64,000 nucleotides of DNA from the NCBI GenBank assembly GCA_049968335.1, contig JBMFQZ010000006.1:78961-142960 (forward strand), written 5' to 3'. The notes below the pieces were generated by a model that saw only the letters and a program-made list of their open reading frames with translations, searched no databases and was not told the DNA's origin. Numbering within the stretch: the stretch's first letter is position 1; each line of letters starts with the position of its first letter. Shown in pieces: positions 227 to 48,342 of this stretch. This DNA is from Verrucomicrobiia bacterium (GTDB lineage: Bacteria > Verrucomicrobiota > Verrucomicrobiia > Limisphaerales > JAKPVM01). Position numbers and translations under genes: made by a program.

Positions 227-249
227 ATGCTGGGTTTGGGGGTTAGTGA

Positions 250-5748: not shown

Positions 5749-5859
5749 TTGTTCACTACTCCGGATTCAGGCTTAATTAATTAAATTGCAATTTTGGGCA
5801 AAAGCATTAATATTTCTCTATTGTGGCGTAATAGTCACTTTAAGAAATTTTTAAAGATA

Positions 5860-5888
5860 AAGCCTTGATACAGGACAAGGCTTTTTTA
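5860..5888 (+). terminator. Terminator-like hairpin about 60 nt upstream of thrS
   Basis: AAGCCTTG (5860-5867) pairs with CAAGGCTT (5876-5883) and runs into TTTTTT. No upstream gene is on this strand, so it may be a leader or attenuator, or the end of a repeat-borne transcript. Confidence 0.45.
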
Positions 5889-5949
5889 TTACTATGATTG
5901 AGTAAATTGATGTTACAACGACCGGCGTAACTAAAAGATTTTAAATTTT

Positions 5950-7797: not shown

Positions 7798-7894
7798 CCG
7801 CAAATTTCATTATCATTTTGCGCTGCCTTTGATGTTGCAATATAAATAATTGCATTTTAAACGGTTCGGACTTTAAATTTTTGACTAACAATTT

Positions 7895-10800
7895 ATGGCA
7901 AACCGAAAGTTATATCCTTTTGATGTAATTGAGAAAAAATGGCATAAAATCTGGGAAGAAGAACAGCCGTTTCGCGCGTGGAACCCGGGCGAGCGGATTC
8001 CCGAACAACATCCGTTCGGGAAAAGACACAATCTTGCGGGAAAGGTTGTAAGCCAGCAGGATTTGCCGCCAAAGTTTTATGTGCTTGATATGTTTCCCTA
8101 TCCAAGCGGCGCTGGTCTTCACGTTGGACATCCCGAGGGTTACACCGCAACGGATATAATCGCAAGATATAAACGCGCCCGCGGTTTTCACGTATTGCAT
8201 CCGATGGGGTGGGATGCCTTCGGTTTGCCCGCTGAACAATACGCTATCAAAACAGGACAGCATCCAAGGATAACAACCGAAAAAAATATCGCAAACTTCC
8301 GCAGACAGATAAAAGCGCTCGGTTTTAGTTACGACTGGTCTCGCGAGATTGATACCACCGACCCGAAATATTACAAATGGACTCAATGGATATTTTTGCA
8401 GTTGTATAACTCCTGGTTCAATCCTGAAACCAATAAAGCCGAACCGATATCAACCTTAAAATATCCGCCGGAATTAAAAACCGAAGAAGAACGGCGAGCC
8501 TACCGCGATAGCAAGCGGCTTGCGTATGTGGCGGAGATGCCCGTCTGGTGGTGCGAGGAATTGGGGACAGTGCTTGCAAACGAAGAGGTCATTGATGGCA
8601 AGAGCGAGGTTGGCGGTTTTCCAGTTGTTCGCAAGCCGATGAGACAATGGATGTTGCGAATAACCGCGTATGCCGAGAGATTATTGAAAGACCTTGATAC
8701 AATTGAATGGAGCGAATCGCTCAAAGAGATGCAGCGGAACTGGATCGGCAGGAGCGAAGGGGCAGAAGTTGTATTTGAAGTAGTTGATGACGGCGCGTTG
8801 AAACTTTCATCTGAAGAGCGAAAAATCACGGTATTTACAACCAGACCGGACACATTGTTTGGCGCGACCTATATGGTTCTGGCGCCTGAACATAAACTGG
8901 TTGATAAAATCATCCCTCCCCACTGGCCTGAAGGGACGCCAGAACTATGGAAAGGGGCTGACCCGGCATCAACATCAACCCCGGCGCAGGCTGTCAGGGC
9001 ATATAAGGCTTACGCGGCGTCAAAAAGCGACCTTGAAAGAACAGAACTTTCAAAAGAAAAAACAGGCGTCTTTACCGGTTCCTACGCGATAAATCCTGTC
9101 AATGGCGAAAAAATCCCCATCTGGATTGCCGATTATGTTCTTGCCACTTACGGGACAGGCGCAATTATGGCGGTACCAGCGCACGACACACGCGACCTTG
9201 AATTTGCAAAAAAATTCAACCTTCCTATTCGTGTGGTTGTGCAACCAGCGGATAGTAAAGTTGACCCGATAGGATTTGTTGACGACGGCATCAGCGTCAA
9301 TTCTGGCTTGATAAGCGGTCTGCCGACACCGCAGGCAAAACAAAAAATCATTCAATGGCTTGAACAACAGGGCAAAGGAAAGAAAACTATCAATTACAAA
9401 CTCCGCGACTGGCTATTTAGCAGACAACGTTACTGGGGCGAACCGTTCCCGATAATCTGGAAAGACGGCAAACACGAGCCGCTACCGGAGAGTGAATTGC
9501 CGCTTGTTCCGCCGCCGCTTGACGATTATAAACCGACGCCGAATGGAGACCCGCCGCTTGCGCGCGCAAAAGATTGGGTTAATCTGCCGGATGGTTCAAA
9601 ACGGGAGACAAATACTATGCCGCAATGGGCGGGAAGTTGCTGGTATTATTTGAGATATCTTGATGCCAGTAACGACAAACAATTTTGCAGCCCGCAATCC
9701 GAGCAATACTGGATGGACGGGGCAAATTGTCAGGGCAAGGGAAAGGTTTGTCCGGGCGTTGACCTGTATGTTGGCGGCACAGAACACGCAGTTCTGCACC
9801 TGCTTTACGCCCGATTCTGGCATAAAGTCCTTTATGACCTTGGCTTCGTCTCTACGCCGGAGCCGTTTTATAAACTTGTCAACCAGGGACTAATTCTTGG
9901 CGAAACCGAATACACGCTCTTCACCTATCCGGACGGCTCTTATTGCAGCGCGTCGGAATTGCGCGATATATCCGAAGAGGCTACCCCGCGCGGTCCGGTT
10001 ATGATCGGATATCATAAGGTTACCGGCGAGAAACTTTACGGTAAAAAAATCAGCGAAGACCATGTGGAAAAGTCCGCAGACGGTTTTGTTTTAAAAACAG
10101 ATAAATCGATAAAGGTTGACGCGCGCAGTTTTAAGATGAGCAAGAGCCGCGGCAACGTTATAAACCCCGACACTGTTCTTGCCGAGTATGGCGCCGACGC
10201 GTTCCGTTTATATGAAATGTTTATGGGACCGCTCGAAATGGTTAAACCGTGGAGCACCCGCGGCGTGGAAGGCGTTTATAGGTTCTTAGGTCGCGTCTGG
10301 AGATTGTTCATTGATGAAAAAAGTTATATTGAGTTTGAACAATCTCTAACAGCGAATCCGGATAAAGCCGAAGAGTTGCTAAAAAACTTGAAACTCTCTG
10401 ATTCTATTAAAAACATTGAACCTGACCAGCAACAACTGAAAGTCCTGCACACCTGCATTAAAAAGGTAACCGAAGATTTAGAAGGTATGCGGTTCAACAC
10501 AGCCATCTCGGCGCTGATGGTATTTATTAACGAGGCAAGCGCTTGGGAGGTTAAACCGGTCTCGGTGTTGCGCGATTTCTTAATCTTGCTCCAGCCGTTT
10601 GCCCCGCATATCGCGGAAGAATTGTGGGATAAATTGCTATCTCAAGCGGGAATGAAACCGGCTATTGAAGCCGTTGCCCTTTGTTATCAACCCTGGCTTG
10701 ATTACGACCCGCAGATGCTTGTGGAAAACACAATGGAAATCCCGGTTCAGGTCAACGGCAAACTGCGCGATGTAATCAAAATTGACGCAAACGCCTCACA

Positions 10801-34511: not shown

Positions 34512-34677
34512 AGCCTTTAATGCTTTAAAATTAAGCAATAAATACGTACCTGCTGCAAATATGTATTATATATTTAATTTCATCAAAATTCATTCGTCTT
34601 TGTTGACCTGGATTCAGATAAGAAACGGGAATTTATGGATTGAATAAAACATCGCTCTTGTGCAATCTAACGATTGT

Positions 34678-37600
34678 ATGAACATATTCAAAATGAACGG
34701 CAAATTTGCGAAGGTTGTCAATATTGTTGTCTTAAATGCTTTTATTTTTTCTGCATTTTCTGCAATTTCGCAGGAGATAAATAACGGGCTGGTGACAGTC
34801 CGCGCTGTAAAGAAGGGGAATTCATTTTCTGGTTTTGATGTATTAAAAGGGAGCACGAATATAGCGATTATAAGGTTTAGTTCGGAGACGGTTGGTTTGA
34901 CTGTCACAAAATGCAGCACAGTACGGGGTGGAGATGCGATTGAATTTTCAGGCTTTCAGGCGCGCAGCGGAGCAGGTGTTGTATTTGGAAAAGAGGATTT
35001 TGTCCGCGTCAGGCTTATTCGCAACGATCCTTATCCGGAGATAGCGTTTGGCATAACTATAGCGGAGTTTGACAGCGCGAAGTGGCAAACGGTGGTGGGG
35101 AAAGAGCCGTTTCATTTTCTTGCGTTATATTTGAAGGATGCCGAAACGTGGCATCATCGCGGCTGGTTAAACGCAACGCCGCTTGTTGATCCATTTCCAT
35201 TATTGCTTGACCGTCATGCCGGCACGCCAGAAATCTCCGCCTATCATTATAACAGGAACTGGAGTTACACAGTGCCGCTTGGGGCTCATCCGATACCGGT
35301 AATTGGTCTGTGGTCTGCAAGCAAGGCGCATTACGTTGGATATGAATTTCAAACAACCCGTCTTGAAAATAATTCTGAGCGCGACATTGCGACCGGGTAT
35401 CGCTGGATTGGCGATGAGAGCGGAAGTCCTGATTCAAAACAGTTTGTTGCGCTTGTTTATCCCTATGGCGGACAGGGGTATCAACAACTTGTTCTTCCGG
35501 AAACTGGGTCGCGATTAAATTCAAAATGCCGCCTGTTATGGAGTTTAAACCTGCCATCAACTGATGATCCGAATCGTTTTACGTTATCGGTTATCTGGGG
35601 CAAAACGATGGATAAACTGCCGCGGGTTCCGGCGGTGGCGGATGTTGACTGGATACCGGGAGGGATTCGGTTAAAGGATTTTCAAGGTCCGCCGCGCGGC
35701 GGTTTAATTGCCGGTGTTGAGCCGCCGTTTCAGGTTCAGGGAACGAGGTTGATTTCAGGCTGGACCTGGCATAATGAAAGCCCGACTGCCGCCGCAGCAA
35801 AGCAAAAAGATTCACAGAGAATCGCGGCTCTTAAAAACATTGCGTCGGAATTGATGAAATACGCAAAGAGGTTTCAGATCAATGGAGAGGAGTGTCTGTT
35901 CTGGGAAAAACCGCTTGAAGGAGAGTGGACTGAACAATGGGGCGGAAAACCTGTAACGACATTGCACAACGCAAACGGTTTTGCCGCCGCAAGGGTTTTT
36001 CTTGGTTTATACCGGGACGCGGGGATGAAGGAGTATTTGCCTGTAGTTGATGGGGTGTTGAACTGGGCAAAATATATTGAATGGACGCGAAACGAGTTTG
36101 CCGATGTCCCTTCTTCGCCATTTGCGATTGGCGGCACGTTGAGCGCCTCGTTTTGTCTGGAATATTATAAAACATTTAAAGATAGTCCCGACGATGAGCA
36201 TCGCAAACGGGCAAGTCTGGCGCTGGAACTTGCGCGCGTCTTTACCTATAGATATCTGGCAATCTGGCTTTCGGACAACAACCGGTTTGACAATCTTGAT
36301 TCTTCGTTTTTATGGGAGCCGAACAGCGGTAGAGACTGGACTGGTGCTGCCTGCGCAAACGAGGTCTTCTGGAATCTGGACACGCTTGCCCAAACGGCTG
36401 TCCATACCGGCGACCCTATCTTGATGTGGGCGCTGCAGGGCTCGTTAGATAGATGGCATCAACTTTATCAGGATGTTGTTAAAAATAGTCTTTTAGAGTA
36501 TCAAGCGCGAGATATGACAGAGGGTTACGGACTTTATGCCGGGAATGTTTACGGGGTTGGAAAACGCGCGCCATACGGATTTGCTTCGCCGCTTGTGATG
36601 ACCGAGCCGGTTGGCGATTCTTTTATCCGTGTCCTTGCAGGTGAAAAAGCGGCGCTTGCGTTTAAAAAAGGAAAACAGCAGGTCAACATCTCGCAATACA
36701 AATATAAACAGGAGGGGAACTTTGCCTTTACGGTTCAATCTGAACGCGGGGTGTTTGACCTATCTTTGACATCGCCTTATTGCGATATTAGCGAAAAATC
36801 TGTCAGCATTGCGCGCGAGGGGAAAAAGATTGTTTTGCAGCCGGGCTCTGATTTTATAAGACCGCCGCAAGCGTTATGGTCTTTGTATTTAAAGAACGTA
36901 AGAAATGGCGACAGAATTATAGTTGGTGAACCGGATGAGACGGCGCCGTCATTGCCAACAGAACCGCCGCTTGCCTATTCAAGCGCTCAAAAACAACCGT
37001 TGTCTAATTATGAAACCGTAAATGGTTTTGGACTGGTTCAACTTCCTTATGACAGCGCTCCTGATTTTAGCTGGGAGAATCCGCAGGGCTGGGCTGGAAT
37101 GCCGCGCGGCAGAATCTGGGTCTTTGGAGTGCCATTTAATATTGAATATTCAAATGACCGTTGTGTGTTGAGCCGTCCCGCGAAGCTGTCGCGTCAGATT
37201 AAGAATGCCGATTTTGTTTATCTATTATACAGCGAGGGCGAAGGCGAGGTTCCGTCGTTGGTTTATTCTGATGGCGCAAAGGAACTGGTTGACACTTCAA
37301 GCGAGGCAATTGCATTCAAGGCTCACCCGCCGATTTTTAAAGGCAGACTGTTTATCGGGAAGGTCGCGGTTAAAAAAGGCAAGTCAATCCAGTCTATTGA
37401 TCCGGCTAAGCGAATGGTCTGGGCTATGACGGTTCAAACATTATCCGACATACCGGCGGAAGATGCGGCACGAGTTAACCTTGCTTTAACCAAAGCGGCT
37501 GAAGAATGGAAAATCCAGAGGGCGCAGGAGTTGATTATGAGCGAACTTTCTGAAAAGGTTAAAACCGTGTCAGAAGGTAAAATAGCGATTCTTCCGCCAA

Positions 37601-38256
37601 GTCCGGGCGGCGCCGCATTTACATTTTTGCAGAAGATTGGTCTGGTTGAGAAGTCTATGGTTCTGAACAACCAGAGGCTTATTGACGGTTCAGTTTTCAA
37701 TCCGCAAAAGGTTTCTGCGGCAGTCTATCTTGATGGCGAGGATTATGTTCATACGGTTAGAAATACCGCCGATGGGGCGAACGCCGTTGAACAATTTGTT
37801 AAAGGAGGCGGCACGCTTGTTCTGCTTGCCTCGCAGCCATGGCCGATGTTTTACGCCACAGGCGGCGGCGGCAGGCGGAGCGAGGCGCTCACCGGGAAAC
37901 TTGGACTGTCGTTGTCTATGGCAGTTGAAGGTTTGCCATCAGAAAAATTGACAATCAAGATTAATACCCAGCAAAATATTATCAGATGCAAAAACGCGCA
38001 ATTCGGGTATCCAGAGGGGGACGGGAGGTTGCGGGCGATTTTAAGAAACCGAATACCAAAGGAGGCAAAATATACTCCGATTGCAACGGTGGTTGGAGAG
38101 TCGGGCAAGGATTACGGCGATGCCGCAGGTTTAATTGAATTTCCTAACGGTGGCAGGGTTCTATATATTGCCAGCGTGTTGCAACTTGACCCGATTAACG
38201 GTTTTGAAATTCGCCGCAGCGTAGCGGAATATTTGATAAAACTGAGCGGTAAATAA
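34678..38256 (+). CDS. Large secreted hypothetical protein (~1190 aa)
   Basis: This is an uninterrupted ORF with a signal peptide (MNGKFAKVVNIVVLNAFIFSAFSAISQE). Its last 76 codons are duplicated at 45835-46064. Confidence 0.75.
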   Translation: MNIFKMNGKFAKVVNIVVLNAFIFSAFSAISQEINNGLVTVRAVKKGNSFSGFDVLKGSTNIAIIRFSSETVGLTVTKCSTVRGGDAIEFSGFQARSGAGVVFGKEDFVRVRLIRNDPYPEIAFGITIAEFDSAKWQTVVGKEPFHFLALYLKDAETWHHRGWLNATPLVDPFPLLLDRHAGTPEISAYHYNRNWSYTVPLGAHPIPVIGLWSASKAHYVGYEFQTTRLENNSERDIATGYRWIGDESGSPDSKQFVALVYPYGGQGYQQLVLPETGSRLNSKCRLLWSLNLPSTDDPNRFTLSVIWGKTMDKLPRVPAVADVDWIPGGIRLKDFQGPPRGGLIAGVEPPFQVQGTRLISGWTWHNESPTAAAAKQKDSQRIAALKNIASELMKYAKRFQINGEECLFWEKPLEGEWTEQWGGKPVTTLHNANGFAAARVFLGLYRDAGMKEYLPVVDGVLNWAKYIEWTRNEFADVPSSPFAIGGTLSASFCLEYYKTFKDSPDDEHRKRASLALELARVFTYRYLAIWLSDNNRFDNLDSSFLWEPNSGRDWTGAACANEVFWNLDTLAQTAVHTGDPILMWALQGSLDRWHQLYQDVVKNSLLEYQARDMTEGYGLYAGNVYGVGKRAPYGFASPLVMTEPVGDSFIRVLAGEKAALAFKKGKQQVNISQYKYKQEGNFAFTVQSERGVFDLSLTSPYCDISEKSVSIAREGKKIVLQPGSDFIRPPQALWSLYLKNVRNGDRIIVGEPDETAPSLPTEPPLAYSSAQKQPLSNYETVNGFGLVQLPYDSAPDFSWENPQGWAGMPRGRIWVFGVPFNIEYSNDRCVLSRPAKLSRQIKNADFVYLLYSEGEGEVPSLVYSDGAKELVDTSSEAIAFKAHPPIFKGRLFIGKVAVKKGKSIQSIDPAKRMVWAMTVQTLSDIPAEDAARVNLALTKAAEEWKIQRAQELIMSELSEKVKTVSEGKIAILPPSPGGAAFTFLQKIGLVEKSMVLNNQRLIDGSVFNPQKVSAAVYLDGEDYVHTVRNTADGANAVEQFVKGGGTLVLLASQPWPMFYATGGGGRRSEALTGKLGLSLSMAVEGLPSEKLTIKINTQQNIIRCKNAQFGYPEGDGRLRAILRNRIPKEAKYTPIATVVGESGKDYGDAAGLIEFPNGGRVLYIASVLQLDPINGFEIRRSVAEYLIKLSGK

Positions 38257-38322
38257 TTTATTGATTAATCCAGTGGCGTTCTTTTGTCGCGGTAAAAAGA
38301 CGCGCTGCCGTCGAGCATCACC
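38027..38322 (+). repeat. Left copy of the ~296-bp direct repeat bracketing the insertion
   Basis: Positions 38027-38219 are identical to 45835-46027. Similarity with scattered substitutions continues to ~38322/46130. Confidence 0.95.
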
Positions 38323-38363
38323 GCTACGGCTCGATGGAAAAGTTTTGGGAAACGAGCCTGCAT
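38265..38363 (-). pseudogene. Chimeric 32-codon ORF: junction ATG fused to a decayed copy of the prepilin-like gene tail
   Basis: The hand translation is [32 protein letters not shown]. The last 18 residues match the C-terminus of the 46073 gene ([17 protein letters not shown]). Confidence 0.6.
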
Positions 38364-38450
38364 TTTTCACACACTCCGCGCCTTTTCCAGCCGCGCCCGC
38401 ACCAGCCCTACCACCGCCTCATACACCGCCTCCCGCTCACCTGGCGTCAA
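38361..38450 (-). repeat. Copy 3 of the methyltransferase gene 3' end (mosaic fragment)
   Basis: It encodes LTPGEREAVYEAVVGLVRARLEKARSV*. Positions 38361-38406 are identical to 39082-39127, and 38410-38438 are identical to 40984-41012. Confidence 0.9.
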
Positions 38451-38485: not shown

Positions 38486-39091
38486 TCATTTTCGGAAATA
38501 GGCATCAAGGGACTCACGCAGACTTCGCAGAGCATCGATGGCGTTGTCGTAGTGACTGAGCTTATATTTGCCATATTCCCATTCCTCGAGTAGAAACAGA
38601 TGTTCGCGATTGCGCCAGTCCCATAAATCGTCAAGGGCCTTTTTTAAATCATCGGAAATCATACCGTTTTTGACCATAGCGGCAGTTCGCTGTTTATAAC
38701 CCGTGTTCTTCCCGGAGATATTTCGTGCTACATCTTTGGTGATACTCTCACAGAGAGTACCGACAAGGCAAACACCCTCTTTGATAATCATTTCACGGGC
38801 AGTCCCCTTTAAGTCAATTCGATTCAACAACCATCGGTAAACATCACTAAGGATTAGTGCGTAGGAGATATTGCGTTGCAAGTTCTTGTCGTGGATAAAC
38901 CAATACTGATCCCGAAAGAACTTGGCCTTTCGCAAATATCCGCGAGGAAAACGGATTTTCAGAGGTCGATCACCCTCTCTTCCTAGAAGGTTTTCAATCT
39001 CTTGCAAATCGTTTCCGATCCGCTTAACCAGTGATTCGATTGACTTTTCCATGACGGTTTCGCACCACATCAGTTGTTCATCATTTTTCAC
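38486..39091 (-). CDS. Orphan helical protein, function unknown (possible HEPN-like effector)
   Basis: This 201-codon ORF ends the island operon. The GTG at 39091 overlaps the TGA of repeat copy 2, and alternative ATGs lie at 39070 and 39052. The WDWRNREHLF string is HEPN-like but is one residue short of Rx4-6H. Confidence 0.6.
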   Translation of the reverse strand: MKNDEQLMWCETVMEKSIESLVKRIGNDLQEIENLLGREGDRPLKIRFPRGYLRKAKFFRDQYWFIHDKNLQRNISYALILSDVYRWLLNRIDLKGTAREMIIKEGVCLVGTLCESITKDVARNISGKNTGYKQRTAAMVKNGMISDDLKKALDDLWDWRNREHLFLLEEWEYGKYKLSHYDNAIDALRSLRESLDAYFRK

Positions 39092-39205
39092 ACACTCCGC
39101 GCCTTTTCCAGCCGCGCCCGCACCAGCGTCACCACTGCCTCGTACAGTGCCTCACGTTGCCCTGGCCGCCGTTCGTACCACAGTGAAACACCAGACGTTC
39201 GAAGC
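39082..39205 (-). repeat. Copy 2 of the methyltransferase gene 3' end (diverged fragment)
   Basis: It encodes ...PGQREALYEAVVTLVRARLEKARSV* with no upstream ORF body. It lies between the OLD-type gene and the 201-aa ORF. Confidence 0.85.
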
Positions 39206-39262
39206 GAGGGTGCCCGGAAGCATTGCCACCTAGCAAGAGAGAGTGAAGTTAGGGATATCATT

Positions 39263-40930
39263 CTAACTTGCCAAGGCCTTCAGTAAGGCGGACACCTTGC
39301 TTTTGAAGTCCTTGATCTTTTCGTCTGCGACCTTACCCTGTTGTACGGCCAAGAGAACCTCGGCTGCTTTGCGCCATCGTTCCCCACTGGTTTGAATTCC
39401 GAGAAAATCCTCCAAGTTGTTTGGCAGCTTGTAGACATCCTTTGTGCAATCGTTCTTGGCCTTCTGAATGAGATTGTTAAGCTTGTCCTGCTTTTCTTTT
39501 TCGCTACCGGTCTTGTTCGCATCCTTGTCATGCAAGACAGCATGATCAATTCGGAACTCGCCCAAAAGGTTCATGAAGCGGTGGATGTTGTATTTTCCGA
39601 GTGTTTCTAAAACAAACACCCCATTGGCGTTAGAAGAAAGTTGCCCGGTCTTGAGCAGGTAGTTGATCAACACCTGTTCCGAAAGCCCTTCAACGATGAG
39701 AACGGCGTTTGCGAAGAAGAGGCTGCTTCGTTCGGGATTCAGCCACAGAAAATGGCGCACTGCTTCCAGTTCCGCCGAACCCGCCTGCACGCCGAGAATT
39801 TCCGCGATTTGCTGGTTGTCCTCAAAGATTTCCTTCAAACGGACCTTTTTGATTTGGGCAACTTCGGTCTTGCCGGCTACTCGCCGCACACGAACCAAAT
39901 CCGCGAGGTCATCGGTGTTGTAGCTGACGAACTGGGGCGAGTGCGAAGCGGCAATGACCTGACGGCCCGGTTTAGCTGCGAGTTGGCGCAAACTGGTGTC
40001 GAGCACGTCTTGTTGCGGCGGATGCAGGAACGCCTCGGGCTCTTCAAACAGTAAAAGCTCCATTTCCGGCGAGAACTCCTTTTTCTCCGACTTGGGCTTT
40101 GACGCGGTGTAGCCCGCGGCGATCCGAATCAGCGTGAAGATCAGATGCCGCTGCAAGCCATGACCAAAGGCGTCAGGGCTCATCTCGGTATTCAAGGCGC
40201 TGTCGGTCAGGGTGTAGCGAATCAGGTTCTTGATGATGTCATCAACTTGTGGCGGATTGATGCCTAGATTAAAGGAGACGCCCCACTCTTTGATTTGATC
40301 AGTGATTTTCGCCTCGAGGTCCGAAAGCGAGCGTTTGTCAGGCGTCTCCTCGTTTTTTATGTTCCAGCTAAACTTAGCGAAGTCTTCGGTCAGGGCGGTA
40401 AAGGCGTTACTCGAAGTGATGACAGGCTTTAGGATGTCGTTAATTAGATCGCGCAGCGCGCTCGGCCCTGTCAGTTTGGTGTGCTCTTCCAATCGGCTGA
40501 CAGCCGGGATGTAAATCACATTGCCAAGTTTGCCCTGAGCCACGTTTTTCCAGCCGTAGAACAAATTCTGCGACAAGCTGCCATTTTCATAACCGAAAAA
40601 ACCGGCCTTCGCTTTATCGGACGGCCACAGCCACTTGCGAACGCGGCAACGGTTTTGGCCGATCAGGTATTCTTTTTTTATGTCTGCCGCCTCTTCTTGA
40701 GACAATTCGTATTCGAGTTCCACCCAGCTTTCCTGGTCATTGGTTTGGAACTTCGGGAAATCCCGGTCTTGGTCGAACTTCAGATCTTTCTCGTAAACGG
40801 TTCGTAGAGCATCGAGGACGTTGCTCTTGCCGGAATTGTTCGGCCCGATAAGCAGCGAATAGTCGCCGAAGCGGATTGTCTGCTCAGCAATCGAACGATA
40901 GTTGTGGATTTTCAGCTCTCTGATTTTCAT
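39263..40930 (-). CDS. OLD-family ATP-dependent nuclease (ABC-type ATPase + Toprim)
   Basis: It has MKIRELKIHNYRSI, Walker A GPNNSGKSN, Walker B LLLFEEPEAFLHP and ASHSP. Toprim follows with AVLIVEGLSEQVLI and LHDKD. A GGAG lies upstream of the ATG at 40930, 10 nt after the methyltransferase stop. Confidence 0.85.
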   Translation of the reverse strand: MKIRELKIHNYRSIAEQTIRFGDYSLLIGPNNSGKSNVLDALRTVYEKDLKFDQDRDFPKFQTNDQESWVELEYELSQEEAADIKKEYLIGQNRCRVRKWLWPSDKAKAGFFGYENGSLSQNLFYGWKNVAQGKLGNVIYIPAVSRLEEHTKLTGPSALRDLINDILKPVITSSNAFTALTEDFAKFSWNIKNEETPDKRSLSDLEAKITDQIKEWGVSFNLGINPPQVDDIIKNLIRYTLTDSALNTEMSPDAFGHGLQRHLIFTLIRIAAGYTASKPKSEKKEFSPEMELLLFEEPEAFLHPPQQDVLDTSLRQLAAKPGRQVIAASHSPQFVSYNTDDLADLVRVRRVAGKTEVAQIKKVRLKEIFEDNQQIAEILGVQAGSAELEAVRHFLWLNPERSSLFFANAVLIVEGLSEQVLINYLLKTGQLSSNANGVFVLETLGKYNIHRFMNLLGEFRIDHAVLHDKDANKTGSEKEKQDKLNNLIQKAKNDCTKDVYKLPNNLEDFLGIQTSGERWRKAAEVLLAVQQGKVADEKIKDFKSKVSALLKALAS

Positions 40931-40940
40931 GTTTTGCTCC

Positions 40941-41075
40941 TCACACGCTTTGGGCTTTTTCGAGGCGGGCGCGGACCAGCCCGACCACCGCCTCATACAC
41001 CGCCTCCCGCTCCCCGGCCGTCAAGCCCAACACATCAAACACCACTTCGTCCAAGGCGAAGCGGTCAGGTGATGC
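40941..41075 (-). repeat. Copy 1 (functional) of the triplicated methyltransferase 3' end
   Basis: It encodes ...FDVLGLTAGEREAVYEAVVGLVRARLEKAQSV* and is the reference for the fragments at 39082-39205 and 38361-38450. Confidence 0.9.
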
Positions 41076-44000
41076 TTGTCGCACTCGGTCTAAAGAAGCG
41101 GCAGAAGGGATGATATGTTCGTAGGGGTGGTTCACATGCGAACAGTGCAGCTCTTTGCACAGCGGAAATCCCAGCTCTTCAAAAACTGTGCGAACAACGC
41201 GCTTGGATAAAGCTTCAAACGCATCAATTAGGCGACTTATTGTTTGCAGGGTGAGATCGGTTGGGTCAATAACCGGGAATAGACCCACATCCGGGCCATT
41301 CACTGAAACTGCGCCAAGCCCCCAAGGCACGTTCCCGATGAGCTCATTCAATCCCGCCGCCACCGTTGAGTTGCAGAAAGCACCGATCACGGCCTTGTGT
41401 TCTTTTGTGTGGAAAATGATTTTATAGAACTTTTGCCCATAAACCCTGCCCAACACGATAGGAACAAAAAAACGAGCGCCTACCATTCGTGGGTATAGCA
41501 AATCACCGAGTTGGCGTGAGTTGCCGGTTGACTTAACTCCGAAGAACACCACGCCAGGGCTATTCTCTGTAAGGCGCATGGTCGAAAGCGAATCAATGCT
41601 GTCAACGAAAGGCACGGAGGGGAATCTCGGCCCGATATTGTTGCCGTGGATGTACCCCTCGATTCTCGCAAATAATCGCAAGGGTTTTAATTTTGGCAAC
41701 ACGTGCGTCATCAGGATGTCCGGAGCGCGCAGGTATTTGCCGCCCCATTTGTTGGCTTCGTAACGAGCGGTTTTGATGAACGGGGTGCGCGGTTTCTTGC
41801 CGGCCGACGCGGGTTCGTCGTCGTCTTCCTCGCGGGCGAGGCCTTCCTCGAACAGGTCGCGTTGGGGTCGGACGCAGATTCGCCAGCGGTCGGTGCTCTG
41901 GCGTTCGGCGGCGGACTCCAGCCTCTTGAAGGTGGCGGCGTCGAGCACGTCCTCGAACGGGACTTTGAACATAACAAAGCGGGCGGTCTGGTCGAGGCCG
42001 CTCTCGCGGCGGTCGTCGGGCGGTGCAAGCAGGGCGATGATCGTGTTGACATCAGCCTGGGCAAAGGAGCGTTTCCGTTCGTTGTCGAGGATGAACTTGA
42101 CGTGGCTGTGTTTGAGGAGGAACTCCTGCAGGTCTGCGCCGTAGCCGACATCGAGCCAGGAGTTGGAGGTGATGAAGCAGAAGCTTCCGCGCTCAGTCAG
42201 CAACGCCAGCCCGTGCAGGTAGAAGTAGATGTAGAGGTCGCTCTGACCGTCCAGTTTTCGATAATTGGCAGAGCTCGGCTTATACCGGAAAAACTTGGGC
42301 CACGCAGCAGCAACGGACTGAGCAAGTTTTGCTTTATAATCCGCCTTTTGTTCCTTCCATCGCGGGGCGTCTTCGCCGCCGTAGTCCTCAGGATTTTTGT
42401 CCGGCGGGGCGATCTTCTCTTTTCGGACATAGGGCGGGTTGCCGATGACGATGTCGAAGCCGGCCTTGTCGCCCTCGAAGATTTCCACAAAGGCGATGTC
42501 CCAGACGAACGGGACTTGTTGGGTGGTGCGCAGCGCCTGCAGGGCTTGTTCGATGCGGTTGAGTTCGGCTTGGCGCTCGGCGCGTTCGGCGCGCCATCCT
42601 TCTTCGAGGCGGAGACGTTCCTGTTTGGCCTGGCCGGGGGCGATGCCGGCCAGTTCGCCCTGTTCCACGCGCGATTCGATTTGATGGGTGAGCGCGGCGA
42701 TGGATTTCTGGAGGGCGAGGCGTTTGTGCGTGAGGATGTCGTGGAAGATGTCGAGTTCTTCCTTTTTGAGGTCGGCTTCGCGGAGGCCGGATTCGCCTTG
42801 GTAGAAGCGGAGTTTTTTGCCTTTGAGCTGGGTGAGTCGGCCTTTGAGTGAGGCAGGAATGTCGAGGTGGTCGCGGTGGAGACCGAGGTTGATGCCGCCG
42901 ATTTCCTGCACGAGGCTGTCGCCGCAGCGGACTTTGAAGGAGAGATTGGGCAGGAGCGGGCGAAATTTTAGTTCCGCAGCTTGGAGCTCGGTTTCTACGA
43001 CCAGTTGCAGCCAGAGGCGCAGTTCGGTGACGTGGATTGCCCAGTCCATCACGTCCACGCCGTAGAGTTGTTCGCCGATAATGCGGCGGCGGCGTTCGTA
43101 GGGGGTTTCTTCGAGGCCGAGTTGGGCGTTGGCGCGGGCTTGGAGGTCGTCGAGCACCAGCAACATGCCGACGAGGAACGAGCCGGAGCCGCAAGCGGGG
43201 TCGCAGACGGTGGTTTCGCGCAGGAGACGGTTGAGGTCGGGCCAGAGGTTTTGGGCAGCGAGCGCGCGGTCGGCGGCTTCTTTGTTGGCGGGGTCGTAAG
43301 CGAAGACGGCGTCGTAGAGCAGCGGTTTTTTGTCCTGGCCAAGCCGGTTGGCGAGGGTGTCGGTAAGGCTGAGGCGGCACATCAGGTCAATTTCGACGCG
43401 CGGGGTGTAGAAGATGCCGGCCGAGCCGCGCAGGTCGTCTTCGGTGAGTCCCTCGAAGGTGATGTTGACGAGGGATTCATAGACTTTGCCGATCATTTCG
43501 GGGTCAACGGCGACCTCGATGTCCAGCGGGGTAGATTCGGCGATGGTGAAGTTGTAGCGTTCGAGGAAGCCGGGGCTGCTTCCGTCAAAGGAATCGAAGA
43601 GGGTGGTAAAAAACTCGTCCGGCAGTTTCGCGTCGTAGGCGTCGTCGAGTTTGTTTTGGGTGAACAAGCCGCCGTTGAGAAACGGGGCTTGAGCGAGGGC
43701 GTGGCGGATGGGGTCGGGGAAATGGCGGTGTCCGCCGTGGAACTTGTTGTTGAACGCCTCGAAGAACAGGACGGAGAGCCAGCGGTCGAAAAAGGTGTCC
43801 TTGGGCTGGTCTGAGTTTTTGTAGGCGCGCCAGAATTCGGCGATGAAGTTCGGATTGTTGACGAGCCAGCGCTTGCGCTGGATGAAGTAAAGGAACATCA
43901 GGCGGTTGAGCAGTTGCAGGGCGTAATCGTGCGCCCAGATTTTGTCGCGGGAGGCATTGGTCAGGTGGGCTTGTAGGTTGGCAAAGACCTTCTTGTAGTC

Positions 44001-44537
44001 GTCGAAGAACCGTTTGGTGACTGCTTCGACATCGAAGGCTCGGTTGAGTTTGTCGGTTAGGGTGGTGATGAGTGGTTCGCCTTGTTCAAGTTCATCGAGG
44101 CTGAAGGCGAGTTCGCCCAGTCGCTCGATAGTGGTGCGGGCGGGAGAGCCGACCTCGTAGGGGAGGGTGCGGAGTTCGATCTTTTCGTCGGGCCGCTGAC
44201 GCGCCCAGGTGAAGGCGGCTTGTCGCTGGTCGGAGGTCACATAGCAGAGGAGATGTTCGGCATGGAGGGGTTTGAGGGCACGCTGAACCACGCGGCGGGC
44301 TGTGACACCGGGAAATTTCTTCTCTGGCCAATCTATGCGATATACCGGAAGACCCGAAAGTTGTGCCACCGGATGGAGGGTGAGGAGCCCGCTTACCGGC
44401 GTTCCGACTTCGAGAGTTCGCGACGTCATACCCCGCGGCGCACCCCAGTTGAGGGTCTGGCAGAAAAGCTCCCCCAGGTTTTCCGCCAAATTGCCGCCGG
44501 TCAATTGGGCTTCGATTTGTTGAAGAATCGTGTTCAT
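40941..44537 (-). CDS. Eco57I/PglX-like gamma-class N6-adenine DNA methyltransferase with a C-terminal specificity region (1198 aa)
   Basis: Motifs are GIFYTPR, motif I VCDPACGSGSFLVGML, LYGVDVMDWAIHVTELRLWL, motif IV FDIVIGNPPYVRKE and KWGGKYLRAPDI. The N-terminal region has LLNRLMFLYFIQRKRWL...FLNGGLF. I saw no clear PD-(D/E)xK motif. Confidence 0.85.
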   Translation of the reverse strand: MNTILQQIEAQLTGGNLAENLGELFCQTLNWGAPRGMTSRTLEVGTPVSGLLTLHPVAQLSGLPVYRIDWPEKKFPGVTARRVVQRALKPLHAEHLLCYVTSDQRQAAFTWARQRPDEKIELRTLPYEVGSPARTTIERLGELAFSLDELEQGEPLITTLTDKLNRAFDVEAVTKRFFDDYKKVFANLQAHLTNASRDKIWAHDYALQLLNRLMFLYFIQRKRWLVNNPNFIAEFWRAYKNSDQPKDTFFDRWLSVLFFEAFNNKFHGGHRHFPDPIRHALAQAPFLNGGLFTQNKLDDAYDAKLPDEFFTTLFDSFDGSSPGFLERYNFTIAESTPLDIEVAVDPEMIGKVYESLVNITFEGLTEDDLRGSAGIFYTPRVEIDLMCRLSLTDTLANRLGQDKKPLLYDAVFAYDPANKEAADRALAAQNLWPDLNRLLRETTVCDPACGSGSFLVGMLLVLDDLQARANAQLGLEETPYERRRRIIGEQLYGVDVMDWAIHVTELRLWLQLVVETELQAAELKFRPLLPNLSFKVRCGDSLVQEIGGINLGLHRDHLDIPASLKGRLTQLKGKKLRFYQGESGLREADLKKEELDIFHDILTHKRLALQKSIAALTHQIESRVEQGELAGIAPGQAKQERLRLEEGWRAERAERQAELNRIEQALQALRTTQQVPFVWDIAFVEIFEGDKAGFDIVIGNPPYVRKEKIAPPDKNPEDYGGEDAPRWKEQKADYKAKLAQSVAAAWPKFFRYKPSSANYRKLDGQSDLYIYFYLHGLALLTERGSFCFITSNSWLDVGYGADLQEFLLKHSHVKFILDNERKRSFAQADVNTIIALLAPPDDRRESGLDQTARFVMFKVPFEDVLDAATFKRLESAAERQSTDRWRICVRPQRDLFEEGLAREEDDDEPASAGKKPRTPFIKTARYEANKWGGKYLRAPDILMTHVLPKLKPLRLFARIEGYIHGNNIGPRFPSVPFVDSIDSLSTMRLTENSPGVVFFGVKSTGNSRQLGDLLYPRMVGARFFVPIVLGRVYGQKFYKIIFHTKEHKAVIGAFCNSTVAAGLNELIGNVPWGLGAVSVNGPDVGLFPVIDPTDLTLQTISRLIDAFEALSKRVVRTVFEELGFPLCKELHCSHVNHPYEHIIPSAASLDRVRQASPDRFALDEVVFDVLGLTAGEREAVYEAVVGLVRARLEKAQSV

Positions 44538-45271
44538 GGCCGTTCCTCAGTCATTGCTGTGGACGAAAAACTCGAAGATGCCGCCACTAATCCCATTGAG
44601 CAAATGATACGGGGTTCGGAGCGACTGGTATCGTCTTCGTCTGTCACTTCACAGAGGTTTTCATCTATTGCCCGGCGCAATACAAGTTCAAGCAGCGCTT
44701 CGTCGGTGATGCCCAGGCGCATCTGCCTGTTGACGGCATCTTGCGCGGCGCGCTTGAGCGGGTATCGCCAGATCAGGTTGAGCACAGAGTCGATCTGTTT
44801 CAAGGTTTCTGGGGTGAAGAGCGTGGGGTTAACCTGAAACCGCTCGCGGTAGCGTTTGAGACGATCGTAGAGTTTCCGGCGCATGCTTCGGAGCGAGCCT
44901 AGCTGGCCGCCTAAGGCAGTCTGCTCCTCGGTGGCAATTTCTACGCAACGGGCGACAAGGTTGTGATGGTTCTCTGCCCGCGGCAGCGGCGGGGTGTTCG
45001 GGGCGCACGCGGCGGCGCGGAAGATGGCGGATATAAACTTGGAAACCAGGTTACCCCGCTCATCCACTCGCACAAGCGCAACGGCGCCGTCTGGGTAGCG
45101 CAAGTAAGTAAGCACCACGGGCGGGTTGTTGACGTGCTCCTTGTCCCGATGATCGTAGGATTCGGTCGGGCGCTTATTCTGATTGGTTTGCGTTTTTCTC
45201 TTGCGTGCAGTCAATTCACACCACCCGCTCCTTGTTGGCGTAAACAAGTTCGTATTCCTTCTTGGCGTCAA
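44534..45271 (-). CDS. Hypothetical protein translationally coupled to the methyltransferase (start uncertain)
   Basis: The G+C-rich ORF stops in an ATGA overlap with the methyltransferase start (44534-44537). Its first ~19 codons overlap a 48-codon ORF in another frame. A TTG at 45214 sits 1 nt after that ORF's TGA. Confidence 0.55.
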   Translation of the reverse strand: MTPRRNTNLFTPTRSGWCELTARKRKTQTNQNKRPTESYDHRDKEHVNNPPVVLTYLRYPDGAVALVRVDERGNLVSKFISAIFRAAACAPNTPPLPRAENHHNLVARCVEIATEEQTALGGQLGSLRSMRRKLYDRLKRYRERFQVNPTLFTPETLKQIDSVLNLIWRYPLKRAAQDAVNRQMRLGITDEALLELVLRRAIDENLCEVTDEDDTSRSEPRIICSMGLVAASSSFSSTAMTEERP

Positions 45272-45362
45272 AGAGGATCACCTTGGAGTCCTCCGGTAAG
45301 GGCTTGCCTTCCCTGAGGAGACTTACAATACGTTCAATTTCTTGCTCTGAAAGTTTACGCAT
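45216..45362 (-). CDS. 48-aa ORF resembling the extreme N-terminus of Mod-type adenine methyltransferases (possible gene remnant)
   Basis: The hand translation is MRKLSEQEIERIVSLLREGKPLPEDSKVILFDAKKEYELVYANKERVV*. The LL..GK.LP......LF...KEYELVYAGKE leader is remembered from type III-like Mod proteins. It is absent from the supplied track because it is under 60 aa. Confidence 0.4.
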   Translation of the reverse strand: MRKLSEQEIERIVSLLREGKPLPEDSKVILFDAKKEYELVYANKERVV

Positions 45363-45402
45363 TTCAATTACCTCGCTTTTCCTTTCTTGCCTGTGTTCAT
45401 TC

Positions 45403-45519
45403 CTAATCCTGGATGATGGACACGATAGAGGCGTTCTGGGTCTGCTTCTGAATTTCCAGGGCTGTCTCCTTCAGGAAGAAATGCTGCTCCTCGGTAATCT
45501 CAGTGGTTGTCTTTCTCAT
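45403..45519 (-). CDS. Small (38 aa) ribbon-helix-helix-like protein, putative operon regulator
   Basis: The sequence is MRKTTTEITEEQHFFLKETALEIQKQTQNASIVSIIQD. A GGGAG lies 9 nt upstream of the ATG at 45519. It is the first ORF of the island operon, and the fold assignment is tentative. Confidence 0.35.
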   Translation of the reverse strand: MRKTTTEITEEQHFFLKETALEIQKQTQNASIVSIIQD

Positions 45520-45834
45520 AATCGTTTTACTCCCGGTTTTTAAAGCACGGTTTCTCGGTCTAACTATATCGTTATAATTTTGAATATAGCCACATAAAGT
45601 CAAGGTGAATTTTGCCGCCTCTCTCACCTTTTGTCGATACCCTTAATCTCGCCTATTAGTAGCGGGGCAATGTCTCTGTCTCCGTTCCTGCCAAGCGAAT
45701 TCTCCGGGCTGGGCGGCTCGGATCAAAGCCCTTATATCTACTTTGGAGGCGCAAGGACTTTTTATTTCTACGAGGAGACATTCTCCGTTTGCTTTCCGAT
45801 TATCTTCCGTAGTGGAACCACTTGAGTGGCGCAC

Positions 45835-46064
45835 GGTTGCGGGCGATTTTAAGAAACCGAATACCAAAGGAGGCAAAATATACTCCGATTGCAACGGTGG
45901 TTGGAGAGTCGGGCAAGGATTACGGCGATGCCGCAGGTTTAATTGAATTTCCTAACGGTGGCAGGGTTCTATATATTGCCAGCGTGTTGCAACTTGACCC
46001 GATTAACGGTTTTGAAATTCGCCGCAGTATAGCGGAATATCTGATAAAACTGAGCGGTAAATAA
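45835..46064 (+). pseudogene. Headless duplicate of the last 76 codons of the 34678..38256 gene
   Basis: RLRAILRNRIPKEAKYTPIATVVGESGKDYGDAAGLIEFPNGGRVLYIASVLQLDPINGFEIRRSIAEYLIKLSGK* differs from the intact gene end by one residue (V to I). The ORF-track entry 45822..46064 only adds 4 unrelated codons. Confidence 0.9.
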
Positions 46065-46130
46065 TTTATTGATTAATCCATTGGCGTTCTTTTGTCGCGG
46101 TAGAAATTTGCGCTGCCGTCCAGCATCGTT
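45835..46130 (+). repeat. Right copy of the ~296-bp direct repeat bracketing the insertion
   Basis: See 38027-38322; the offset is 7808 bp. Confidence 0.95.
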
Positions 46131-46786
46131 CTATTTCTGCCGCCCGTATGCGGAGTTCTGCCGCGAATATTCTGCGGCAAAGTTGCGATTGTTGATGGAA
46201 AATAGACATCTACTGTAAGTTCAACTTCCGATGCAGAGGCTGGCGGCGGCGCGTTCGGGTTATTTGCCAGCCTGAGCGAGGCTACACAATCCTCTATTGT
46301 GCGTCCCCAGAAGTTGTCTGGTGGCACTGGGTCATCTTTCCTATCAAACCGCCACATCCAGTATCTTACCATGACGGATTTTGGACTATTGTCGCCAATG
46401 TCGGCTTCCTGAGAGGTTTGGATTATTGAAGATAGACCTTTTTTCTCAACTGCAGGACAGTTCCATATATTTGATTGATTGATGTAGTGTCGCAGAACTA
46501 CCGCAGCCCAGCCGGCGCGCGGATCGCTTTGGGGCCAGGTTGTCCATGGTTTATATCCGCCAGGAAGGCTCATTTTTAAATCGCGTCTATCAGGAAACCT
46601 GCCTTGATTCTCATCCAGATACATAAACAAAGCGCTTGACTGTTGTTTGAGATTTGAAAGACAGGAAATTCTATATGCCGCGTTTTTTGACCTTATTACC
46701 GCAGGCAACAAAATGGATGCAAGGATTCCAATTATCCCGATTACGACGAGCAATTCAATTAAGGTAAAACCGCTCCTTAATTGCAT
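46073..46786 (-). CDS. Prepilin-type N-terminal cleavage/methylation domain protein (DUF1559-like, H-X9-DG tail)
   Basis: It has [25 protein letters not shown] after the ATG at 46786, and a C-terminal [13 protein letters not shown] (H-X9-DG). Confidence 0.85.
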
Positions 46787-46920
46787 ATGAGAAAAAACAG
46801 AATAGAAGCAGTTGGGGCGCATCAATTTATTACGAGTATAACGCAATCCGGATGAACAGAGACTTGTGATATTCATCCGCTTGCTTGAAAAAGCAACTTC
46901 ATCTATAAATATTTTGATTT

Positions 46921-48342
46921 TCAATCTGCCACTTCTAATTTAATTATTCTGTCTGGATTATTCATAGCAAGATAGAGATTGCCGTCTGGAGCGGTCACTA
47001 CAGAGCGAATTCTGCCGATTCCTTTAAATAAGATTTCTGAATGCGCTACGCGATGTGCCTCAATTTCTAATCTCCATAATTCCTCTTTTGCCAGTGAGGC
47101 AACAAAGAGATTGTTTTTCCATTTTGGAAACCTGTAGCCTCTGTAAAAGCCGATGCCGCAAACCGCAATTGACGGCGTCCAGTAAAATACTGGTTGTTCA
47201 AGACCTTCTTTATGGGTTAAATGAGTGATTGGGGAACCGTCGTAATTCATTCCATAAGTAATAATAGGCCAGCCGTAATTTTTGCCTTTTTCAATTAAAT
47301 TAAGTTCATCGCCGCCGCGCGGCCCGTGTTCTGTCTCCCACAGTTCGCCGGTCAGCGGGTTAAAATCAAGACCTTGCGGATTTCTATGTCCGTAGCTCCA
47401 GATTGATGGTATTGCGTTAGGAACATTTACAAATGGATTGTCCGGGGGCACTCTGCCGTCATCAAACAGTCGATGCACTTTGCCGTTCGGTCTCGTTATG
47501 TCTTGCGCATGCTGCATAGTGCCGCGTTCGCCGATTGAAAAGAAAACGTGACCATTATTGTCAAACACGATCCGCGAACCAAAGTGAATTCCGCCGGGAC
47601 GGTAAAATTCTGGCGATGCTCTAAAAATTGTTTGTTCATCTGTCCATTTGCCATCTTTAATATGACCGCGAACAATTACAGTCAGTCCGACGTTGTTTCC
47701 AAGATTATTCGTCCCGCGTTCAGAATATGAGAGGTAGACCCAACGGTTTGTTCTATAACCTGGGTGAAGCGCAACATCCATTAGACCACCCTGCCCTTCG
47801 GCGCGAACTTTCGGGGTGTTTTCAACCGGCGCCGAGATATTACCGTTTTTGTCAACAATTCGCAGCCGTCCGGCAAGTTCAGTTACAAGCATTTTATTAT
47901 CTTCATCTGGAAGAAAGGCGATTGCCCACGGGGTGGCAATGCCCTCGCATACTGTCCTTATCCTAAAATTGTGTTTTTCACTCTTAACGACCTGCTCTGC
48001 GGCTGGTTTGGGCGGTGGAGATTTTTTTAAAGCGGCTTGTGTCTCTTTTTCCCTTATGTAGATAACCATAGCGCGTATTTCCGATTCGCTAAGGGCGTTT
48101 TTCATCGGCGGCATTCCCTCTTCTTCTTTCCCGTCGCGGATAATTTTTGCAATATCTTCATCGCTTGAGCCATATTTCCATTTTCCGTCTATCAGGCTTT
48201 CTCCGGCGCCTCCCTCAAGATTTGCTCCGTGACAGCTGGCGCAATTGTCGGCATAGACGCGGGCGATGTCGCGGGCGGAAGCGCTGGTTGCCAGCGCGGT
48301 TGCGCAAAGAACTATTGCTATGTTTGTTCTGTTGAGAATCAT
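46921..48342 (-). CDS. PQQ-dependent sugar dehydrogenase (beta-propeller) fused to an N-terminal cytochrome c domain
   Basis: It has a signal peptide, CASCHG plus a distal Met (GMPPM), and soluble glucose/sorbosone dehydrogenase-like strings ([32 protein letters not shown]). Confidence 0.8.

Follow-up and report, generated by a model that had tools for sequence, protein, structure and literature searches.

HEPN proteins occur in several described systems. In HEPN-MNT (HepT-MntA) modules, the HepT toxin carries an Rx4HxY motif with an AMPylatable Tyr and is encoded adjacent to an MNT nucleotidyltransferase antitoxin. HEPN RNases linked to restriction-modification (RM) systems, which include the PrrC/RloC anticodon nucleases and the stand-alone AbiU2, AbiJ, ApeA, and EC042_2821/DUF3644 clades, are encoded in type I/II RM operons or appended to them, and RM-linked HEPN proteins such as PrrC act as second-line RNases (PMC3710099). 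Integron cassettes serve as defence banks, and a single-gene HEPN-AbiU2 cassette of Vibrio mimicus is active against T4/T7 (bioRxiv 10.64898/2026.03.17.712381). A census of HEPN families describes a polar residue after the Arg, an Arg-His spacing of Rx4-6H, an E-x3-[KR] motif in helix 2 of many families, and a common insert separating helix 2 from helix 3; some HEPN domains are also known to lack catalysis (PMC3710099). Here, these systems are compared with gene X, a minus-strand open reading frame (ORF) at 38486..39091 of a 64,000-nucleotide stretch of a Verrucomicrobiia bacterium genome (contig JBMFQZ010000006.1), the whole of which is referred to as the window. Taken together, the observations below are best explained if gene X encodes a stand-alone HEPN protein of about 190 amino acids (aa), a predicted single-gene RNase effector carried as a mobile cassette, and this joint explanation is probably correct.

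Gene X and its predicted HEPN fold

Gene X belongs to a large family. A word-indexed search returned 72 homologues at E<=1e-24, with E-values to 1e-131, and an exhaustive phmmer search at E<=1e-3 returned about 330 clusters at 50% identity, almost all of them single-domain proteins of about 190 aa. The gene is therefore not the orphan that an earlier reading of the same DNA (the original prediction) had taken it for. An identical protein is present in a Verrucomicrobiia metagenome-assembled genome (MAG), and the next closest, at 82% identity, is encoded by Pyrinomonas methylaliphatogenes. The family spans Verrucomicrobiota, Acidobacteriota, Sumerlaeota, Gammaproteobacteria, Nitrospirota, Bacillota, Bacteroidota, and methanogenic archaea. 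Among plasmids searched with tblastn, homologues were found on two Alteromonadaceae megaplasmids only, next to hypothetical genes. Substitutions at codon positions 1, 2, and 3 number 27/16/53 relative to the Pyrinomonas gene and 50/34/107 relative to a Sumerlaeia gene. By this pattern, gene X is a real conserved coding gene with a clear coding signal. The original prediction was to fall if homologues and a coding signal were both lacking; both were found, as the 72 homologues and the bias of substitutions towards the third position attest.

The ORF and the motif DDLKKALDDLWDWRNREHLFLLEEW quoted in the original prediction are both present in the translation, which runs to 201 aa when counted from a GTG codon. 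This GTG (39091-39089) shares bases with the TGA (39090-39088) of a 57-aa ORF that holds a methyltransferase-tail remnant, giving a GTGA overlap. Downstream of it, a four-codon mini-ORF ends on the first in-frame ATG, so the odd start context noted previously is real. The leader of the Pyrinomonas gene retains (TTG) ATG AAC AAC TAA, followed at once by GTG TGG; this comparison covers two closely related examples only, and any function of the mini-ORF is putative. The seven-codon GTG extension is not conserved, because the Pyrinomonas gene carries an in-frame stop there, and the majority of homologues start at the position of M7 (ATG 39052). Thus, the 201-aa product originally proposed is unlikely, the true start is most likely ATG 39070 (194 aa) or ATG 39052 (188 aa), and the likely product is 188-194 aa long. 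The gene and its predicted features are the following, in window positions:

38486..39070 (-): gene X, predicted stand-alone HEPN-fold protein, 194 aa from ATG 39070 (ORF, homologues, substitution bias, AlphaFold2 model, Foldseek)
39070..39084 (-): mini-ORF ATG ATG AAC AAC TGA, read directly; its TGA overlaps ATG 39070
38930..38950 (-): F41-P-R-G-Y-L-R47, family-specific conserved loop in the ~55-residue N-terminal extension ahead of the HEPN core (conservation)
38780..38794 (-): E93-M-I-I-K97, putative E-x3-[KR] motif in HEPN-core helix 2 (conservation in alignments A1 and A8, helix 89-114, criterion of PMC3710099)
38600..38614 (-): R153-N-R-E-H157 (R-x3-H), predicted catalytic motif, with the conserved W150 before it (conservation, HepT alignment, model)

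An AlphaFold2 model of the gene X protein, built from 42 homologues, is all-helical with a mean pLDDT of 86.4. Its helices span residues 62-84, 89-114, 140-154, and 171-193, with a short inserted helix (125-134) separating the second from the third. In the model, R153 closes helix 140-154 and is followed by Asn, H157 lies in the loop after that helix, and E93-x3-K97 falls within helix 89-114. The FPxG loop region has a lower pLDDT. When the model was compared with the PDB using Foldseek, as the original prediction had proposed, the matches at ranks 1-35 were all HEPN domains. They include YutE (1ylm, E=2e-3), the HEPN/HepT toxins 7ae8, 7ae9, 5yep, 6m6u, and 7bxo, the sacsin HEPN domain (3o10), HI0074, AF0298 (2hsb), and 1wwp. 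The alignments span nearly the whole of the targets, with target-normalised TM-scores of 0.5-0.7. No convincing match to the model was found in the viral fold library BFVD.

Conservation across the family centres on the same positions. In an alignment of 130 diverse members (A8), R153 is the sole invariant residue, and conservation reaches at least 90% at H157, K97, E108, N67, Y70, D76, W80, R84, E165, Y169, F41, and P42. Alignment A1 shows no variation at M94, K97, F41, P42, G44, or R47, and at least 90% conservation at E93. Motif counts were taken from 190 full-length members, 163 of which have W..R...H and 162 FP.G; the residue following the Arg is mostly N, Q, or S. Distant variants with RDNIH or RNNIH likewise keep three residues between R and H, and a spacing of four occurs in two members only (P0112 and P0168). 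The non-canonical spacing pointed out in the original prediction is therefore a property of the whole family.

Profile comparisons place the Arg and His in register with those of HepT. The top three PDB sequence matches of the 130-sequence profile are the HepT toxins 5yep, 6m6u, and 6m6w, at E ~0.4, which is not significant alone. The alignment sets '...LdwlwdiRnk.iH' on '...LKKMVGLRNIaVH', so that the Arg and His fall on HepT R97 and H102 with a one-residue gap. The same register was obtained with hhalign against the DUF3644 protein (EC042_2821-type HEPN) encoded next to the Pyrinomonas gene. With the 42-sequence profile, the PDB sequence search yielded a chance geopilin match only, and aligning the family by hhalign to one HepT sequence, that of locus L001, was uninformative. 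Because the Foldseek matches are HEPN domains and the Arg and His align with those of HepT across a one-residue gap, the gene X family is, by model and alignment, a clade of the HEPN superfamily with a family-wide contracted R-x3-H motif. It has the helical fold, the R/H placement, the polar residue after the Arg, and the helix-2 E-x3-[KR] motif of the census. The HEPN-like character originally suggested is thus upheld in silico, by the 35 structural matches, the conserved R153 and H157, and the HepT profile alignment. The supplement of the census holds no sequences matching the family (PMC3710099), and a literature search found no mention of Rx3H together with HEPN. The family is apparently a new, unannotated clade of a known superfamily, and its cassette architecture is unusual and apparently undescribed.

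The HepT toxins of HEPN-MNT systems (5yep, 6m6u, 7bxo, and 7ae8), together with YutE (1ylm), are the best structural and PDB profile matches to gene X. They share the helical core, the R and H located where helix 3 ends, and the Asn after the Arg. However, HepT has R-x4-H-x-Y, whereas gene X reads R-N-R-E-H-L-F and lacks a Tyr two residues past the His. Gene X also has an extra N-terminal extension of about 55 residues with an FPxG..R motif, and there is no significant sequence similarity between the two. Neither the adjacent MNT antitoxin nor the Rx4HxY motif with its AMPylatable Tyr is present. No NTP_transf_2 gene adjoins gene X in any locus, and in L001 the MNT-HepT pair forms a module of its own, about 2 kb upstream of gene X.

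Like the RM-linked HEPN RNases, gene X homologues lie in type I/II RM operons or are appended to them, and the order hsdM-hsdS-X-helicase in two loci (L051 and L053) mirrors prrA-prrB-prrC-prrD. However, PrrC and RloC fuse an N-terminal ABC-type ATPase to a C-terminal HEPN domain, whereas gene X encodes 188-201 aa without an ATPase domain. Gene X also matches no Pfam model of the RM-linked HEPN clades, and many members of its family lack an RM system. Integron-cassette HEPN proteins (the PDB 3jrt family and HEPN-AbiU2) offer a further parallel, since the gene X family likewise forms single-gene HEPN cassettes in integrons. The 3jrt structure is absent from the 50 Foldseek matches listed for gene X and from its PDB sequence matches, which suggests that the gene X family is distinct from the 3jrt family.

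Cassette boundaries at methyltransferase, hsdS, and attC repeats

In the window, gene X lies between copies of the 3' end of an upstream RM gene. An 85-nt direct repeat is present three times, and its translated copies read as the C-terminus of the methyltransferase (MTase). The donor of the repeated tail is the gene of a 1198-aa type IIG enzyme (which also matches MmeI_Mtase in Pfam). One copy lies at 40935-41019, one upstream of gene X (39082-39166), and one downstream (38361-38445), and identities to the reference copy are 78% and 87%, the latter between the two copies that flank gene X. These two are the MTase-tail fragments that the original prediction placed on either side of the gene. 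From upstream to downstream, the features concerned are:

40941..44537 (-): type IIG restriction-modification enzyme, 1198 aa, with Eco57I/MmeI-type methylase domains (Pfam Eco57I E=1.3e-29; PADLOC REase_MTase_IIG E=3e-52)
40935..41019 (-): MTase-tail copy 3, which is the type IIG gene's functional 3' end together with the first spacer bases (repeat alignment)
39263..40930 (-): OLD-family ATPase/TOPRIM nuclease, 555 aa from ATG 40930 (Pfam AAA_15, AAA_21, and OLD-like_TOPRIM; PADLOC Old E=1.9e-61)
39088-39261 (-): 57-aa remnant ORF holding tail copy 2; it begins 1 nt past the OLD stop and has a GTGA overlap with the longest gene X frame
39082..39166 (-): MTase-tail copy 2, upstream of gene X, inside the 57-aa remnant ORF; copy 1 has the same 46 nt at its 3' end
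38361..38445 (-): MTase-tail copy 1, downstream of gene X, mosaic (repeat alignment)

Copy 1 combines the two other copies. Its 5' 39 nt match copy 3 at 35/39 positions and copy 2 at 28/39, whereas its 3' 46 nt match copy 2 at 46/46 positions and copy 3 at 31/46. Judged from this alignment, the mosaic marks a crossover, and the tails record recombination. Written as halves, in order, the arrangement is a.B3 - OLD - A2.b - X - a.b, in which OLD, flanked by tail copies 3 and 2, is a cassette of its own. In the simplest history, a resident a.b - X - a.b arrangement would have come first. An OLD-bearing circle with the tail A2.B3 would then have integrated into the first tail by a single crossover at the a/b junction. 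This order of events would account for the halves, and different orders could do so as well. As originally noted, gene X has the lower G+C content of the host, at 44.8% (49% at third codon positions, GC3), compared with 51% (GC3 65%) for OLD and 58.5% (GC3 72%) for the MTase gene. The host flanks have about 44-48%, the island as a whole 54.7%, and the remaining window 43.7%.

Similar boundaries occur across the family. Direct repeats bracket gene X at z>7 relative to shuffles in 16 of 102 non-redundant loci, with a spacing of mostly 630-720 nt. Two classes can be told apart, repeats of the upstream RM gene's 3' coding tail and integron attC sites. In the first class, hsdS tails lie on both sides of gene X in L014 (100-133 nt), L004, and L034. 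MTase-tail fragments lie on either side of the Pyrinomonas gene, and in a Sumerlaeia locus (L017) the upstream tail is that of hsdS and the downstream one that of the MTase. The hsdS genes beside gene X are about 27-33% identical overall and 70-100% identical over their last 12-45 residues. The tail is thus conserved while the rest of the gene diverges, and it therefore appears to travel with gene X.

In the second class, attC sites (GCCTAAC...GTTAGGC imperfect palindromes) are found on either side of gene X. RNAalifold predicted no structure on a naive attC alignment. Two simple attC heuristics were too strict and missed known sites, so a covariance model (R1), built from 11 sites with the structure assigned by hand, was used instead. 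Model R1 found co-oriented attC arrays in at least 21 non-redundant gene X loci (at least 20%). The richest are L020 and L127 with 13 sites each, L077 with eight, and L132 with seven; arrays are also present in L129, L044, and L119. The model found no attC site in the 64-kb window or in the RM-linked loci. Thus, the organisation of an integron cassette, an ORF with an attC site (inverse core RYYYAAC ... core GTTRRRY), is seen in these homologous loci but not in the window copy. In Salinimonas profundi (L043, 4247-6660), an OLD gene and a gene X homologue are adjacent cassettes, and the homologue is apparently frameshifted or truncated. There, attC-like repeats between OLD and X were seen by eye and were undetected by model R1.

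These boundaries show gene X as a self-contained mobile cassette, delimited by MTase tails here and by hsdS tails or attC sites elsewhere. The discrete cassette described in the original prediction thus finds strong support, and it is broader in kind than was then supposed.

The use of tails as boundaries extends to other genes. The Verrucomicrobiia MAG contig L142 (JBMFLQ010000020.1) carries the same OLD gene with both tails, at 85% nucleotide identity over 1.8 kb. Across 7.9 kb of this contig (1-7871), nine MTase-tail remnants separate Mrr_N, AAA_21, DUF3800, OLD, and DUF4258 genes, at least five defence cassettes. The remnants, in positions of that contig, are of two types:

316-389, 1023-1096, 5223-5296, 7063-7136: four remnants of the tail type found in the window
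1127-1233, 3007-3113, 4031-4137, 5039-5145, 7194-7240: five remnants of a second MTase tail, the 'IDQxVYRLYGLTPEEI' type

No full-length methyltransferase gene is present on the L142 contig, and remnants of the second MTase tail or of hsdS tails were not found in the window. The L142 array suggests that tail-delimited stacking of defence genes is not peculiar to gene X. A partial parallel is found in staphylococcal cassette chromosome (SCC) elements, which lie in tandem at the 3' end of rlmH, have short repeats, and use dedicated Ccr recombinases. The cassettes in the window are similarly each bounded by a copy of a gene's 3' end, in this case that of the methyltransferase, but no recombinase was recognised in the island.

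About one-quarter of the family loci are RM-linked, with gene X closing a type I or IIG restriction operon at its 3' end, and most relatives of at least 55% identity with informative flanks belong to this group. The order hsdR-hsdM-hsdS-X is found in L004, L034, and L059. A 4-nt overlap between the hsdS stop and gene X is seen in L004, L059, L014, and L017 (the last two being hsdS-X), and in L034 the hsdS tail extends to the start of gene X. Other arrangements are hsdM-hsdS-X followed by a large helicase gene (L051 and L053), hsdM...X...hsdR (L081 and L126), and hsdS-TIR-hsdR-YgjP-X (L012, with L024 and L111 similarly arranged). An Eco57I-type gene is followed by gene X in L046, L048, and the window. 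In Pyrinomonas, the type I locus around the gene is degraded and also holds MNT-HepT, Mrr_N, and DUF3644. In an all-against-all BLAST of the neighbours at -2, -1, and +1, only hsdS recurs. With no conserved neighbour beyond hsdS at these positions, a dedicated antitoxin or partner gene for gene X was ruled out.

Some loci show additional features. In a Verrucomicrobiota MAG (L007/L018, 9910-10707), a gene X homologue lies between adenylosuccinate lyase and MFS transporter genes, with hsdS-tail copies on either side yet no hsdS gene, and this cassette seems to have moved with its tails. The L012 locus (61-7918) is a type I RM operon with embedded RhuM and SEFIR/TIR genes, a multi-effector RM island in which a gene for a YgjP-like metallopeptidase lies directly upstream of the gene X homologue. 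In L024 and L111, hsdR and then YgjP lie upstream of gene X, about 1.6 kb away.

Predicted function and alternatives

By analogy with PrrC, other RM-linked HEPN genes, and the HEPN-AbiU2 integron cassette, we infer an RNase effector role in defence for gene X. The protein would dimerise into a metal-independent RNase site, be held inactive until infection, and then cleave cellular or phage RNA, acting as a single-gene abortive-infection or toxin-type effector. In the window, the type IIG enzyme and the OLD nuclease, both aimed at DNA, would be backed by this second line directed at RNA. A tail-bounded cassette would loop out as a circle by homologous recombination between the tail repeats and could re-integrate Campbell-style into any similar tail. 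Re-integration would restore the RM reading frame and leave the cassette co-transcribed and often translationally coupled.

A wider proposal can be put forward tentatively, with somewhat less than even expectation that it is right. RM-gene 3' tails, namely the type IIG MTase tail and the conserved C-terminal region of HsdS, may bound an integrase-independent, homology-driven cassette system analogous to attC arrays. Such a system would stack small defence genes (the gene X family, OLD, Mrr_N, AAA_21, DUF3800, and DUF4258) behind an RM gene while regenerating its frame. The gene X family would then be a promiscuous R-x3-H RNase effector that uses both this route and integrons.

Several observations weigh against gene X being a mobile RNase effector. 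The three-residue spacing lies outside the published Rx4-6H, and catalysis could be altered or abolished. The likeness to HEPN is structural or sub-threshold, with Foldseek E-values of 2e-3 to 0.5 and a profile match at E ~0.4. Gene X matches nothing in Pfam-A (E<=0.1), NCBIfam (E<=1), or PADLOC (E<=0.1), its single match in PHROGs is non-significant (E=0.21), and tblastn against phage genomes found no homologue. No antitoxin or regulator is evident near the gene, which is awkward for a constitutively toxic RNase. About half of the family loci have neither an RM nor an attC context, and the loop-out and re-integration steps are drawn from repeat mosaics only.

The unusual spacing and the missing antitoxin would also suit a non-catalytic HEPN protein, either an RNA- or nucleotide-binding adaptor or a regulator of the co-translated restriction enzyme that acts, for example, in infection sensing or in tuning HsdS/MTase assembly. 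The 4-nt start/stop overlaps with hsdS, which suggest stoichiometric co-production, agree with such a role, as does the existence of HEPN domains without catalysis (PMC3710099). However, R and H are the top conserved positions and occur together with E-x3-K, the pattern of catalytic HEPN domains. An RM-dependent role is also not general, because at least 20% of members are lone integron cassettes without a nearby RM gene. A non-catalytic role is consequently judged unlikely. The adjacency of OLD raises a different question, whether gene X is the second component of a two-gene system in which OLD senses or cuts DNA and activates X. OLD is directly upstream of X in both the window and S. profundi L043, and between these two loci the OLD proteins are 40% identical and the X proteins 41%. 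This two-gene system was discarded, since at both loci a cassette boundary lies between OLD and X, an MTase tail in the window and an attC-like repeat in L043. Moreover, the GC3 of the two genes differs (65% for OLD and 49% for X), OLD adjoins X in only 2 of ~115 loci, and L142 and L143 carry close OLD homologues without X, all of which leaves the system highly improbable.

Gene X could instead be an inert passenger, a cassette remnant kept by hitch-hiking and without current function in this genome. Its position at a decaying island edge full of gene fragments (the tail remnants and the 57-aa ORF) is in keeping with this idea, as are its ambiguous start codon and a promoter/terminator scan in which no signal exceeded shuffled expectation. 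Yet the reading frame is intact and full-length, every family-invariant residue is kept, and substitutions relative to homologues are biased to the third codon position, so that loss of function would be a considerable surprise. Thus, a stand-alone HEPN RNase effector on a mobile cassette is the preferred explanation.

Should gene X encode an active RNase, R-x3-H would have to be admitted to the HEPN catalytic signature. Motif screens that demand Rx4-6H would miss the family, and four profile libraries also fail to annotate it. It would further be a compact candidate for a defence or toxin module, made up of one gene of ~0.6 kb and found widely among environmental bacteria and archaea. How defence islands build up is a question on which the cassette architecture bears, with accessory nucleases accreting at the tail of an RM gene by recombination within a short conserved coding segment, and tail copies and crossover mosaics would leave a readable trail of this accretion. 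The presence of the family in classical integrons as well links two cassette economies. Additionally, copies of an upstream gene's 3' end on both sides of a gene may offer a searchable signature for new defence genes.

The surrounding island

Gene X is the last gene of a tightly packed co-directional string that comprises a 245-aa ORF, the type IIG enzyme, OLD, the 57-aa remnant, and gene X, and a convergent host gene is located downstream. The terminal position in the island operon given by the original prediction is thus accurate. The remaining features of the island are:

44534..45271 (-): 245-aa ORF of unrecognised family that may be only partly coding; it overlaps the MTase start by 4 nt (library scans)
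38027..38319 (no strand): island-flanking 293-nt direct repeat, left copy, 97% identical to the right copy
45835..46127 (no strand): island-flanking 293-nt direct repeat, right copy, 97% identical to the left copy

The 293-nt repeats bracket the whole 7.5-kb high-G+C island with its RM, OLD, and X genes. The repeated sequence consists of the 3' ends of two convergent host genes and their intergenic spacer. The host genes in the flanks encode a prepilin-type N-terminal methylation/DUF1559-like protein (46073-46924, minus strand) and a 1198-aa protein without a Pfam family (34660-38256, plus strand). The DUF1559-like protein is in line with the Verrucomicrobiia origin to which NCBI proteins of 100% identity point. 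No integrase or transposase was recognised within the island, and Rfam gave no match within 37-47 kb of the window.

Insertion of RM units with long target duplication has been described by Furuta, Abe and Kobayashi (2010; PMC2853133). Such inserts are shorter than 20 kb, carry R and M functions and no mobility genes, and are flanked by a direct duplication of more than 30 bp that should be single-copy in a relative with an empty site (PMC2853133). The island, as seen in this one genome, resembles these insertions, being likewise below 20 kb, with a type IIG R-M fusion, without a recognised mobility gene, and flanked by a 293-nt direct duplication. The published cases concern a whole RM unit, whereas in the window accessory genes appear to have been serially inserted in the RM gene's own tail.

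Among the matches listed, close homologues of the OLD protein are 46-88% identical over their full length and have about 550-585 aa. OLD, the 57-aa remnant, and gene X could be translationally chained, and the remnant may still yield a small peptide with the MTase C-terminal helix. Two short, unassigned ORFs are also present at 45216-45627 on the minus strand, one of 48 aa (MRKLSEQEIERIV...KKEYELVYANKERVV) and one of 74 aa. They sit between the right island repeat and the 245-aa ORF and could represent either what is left of a disrupted gene or a small regulator.

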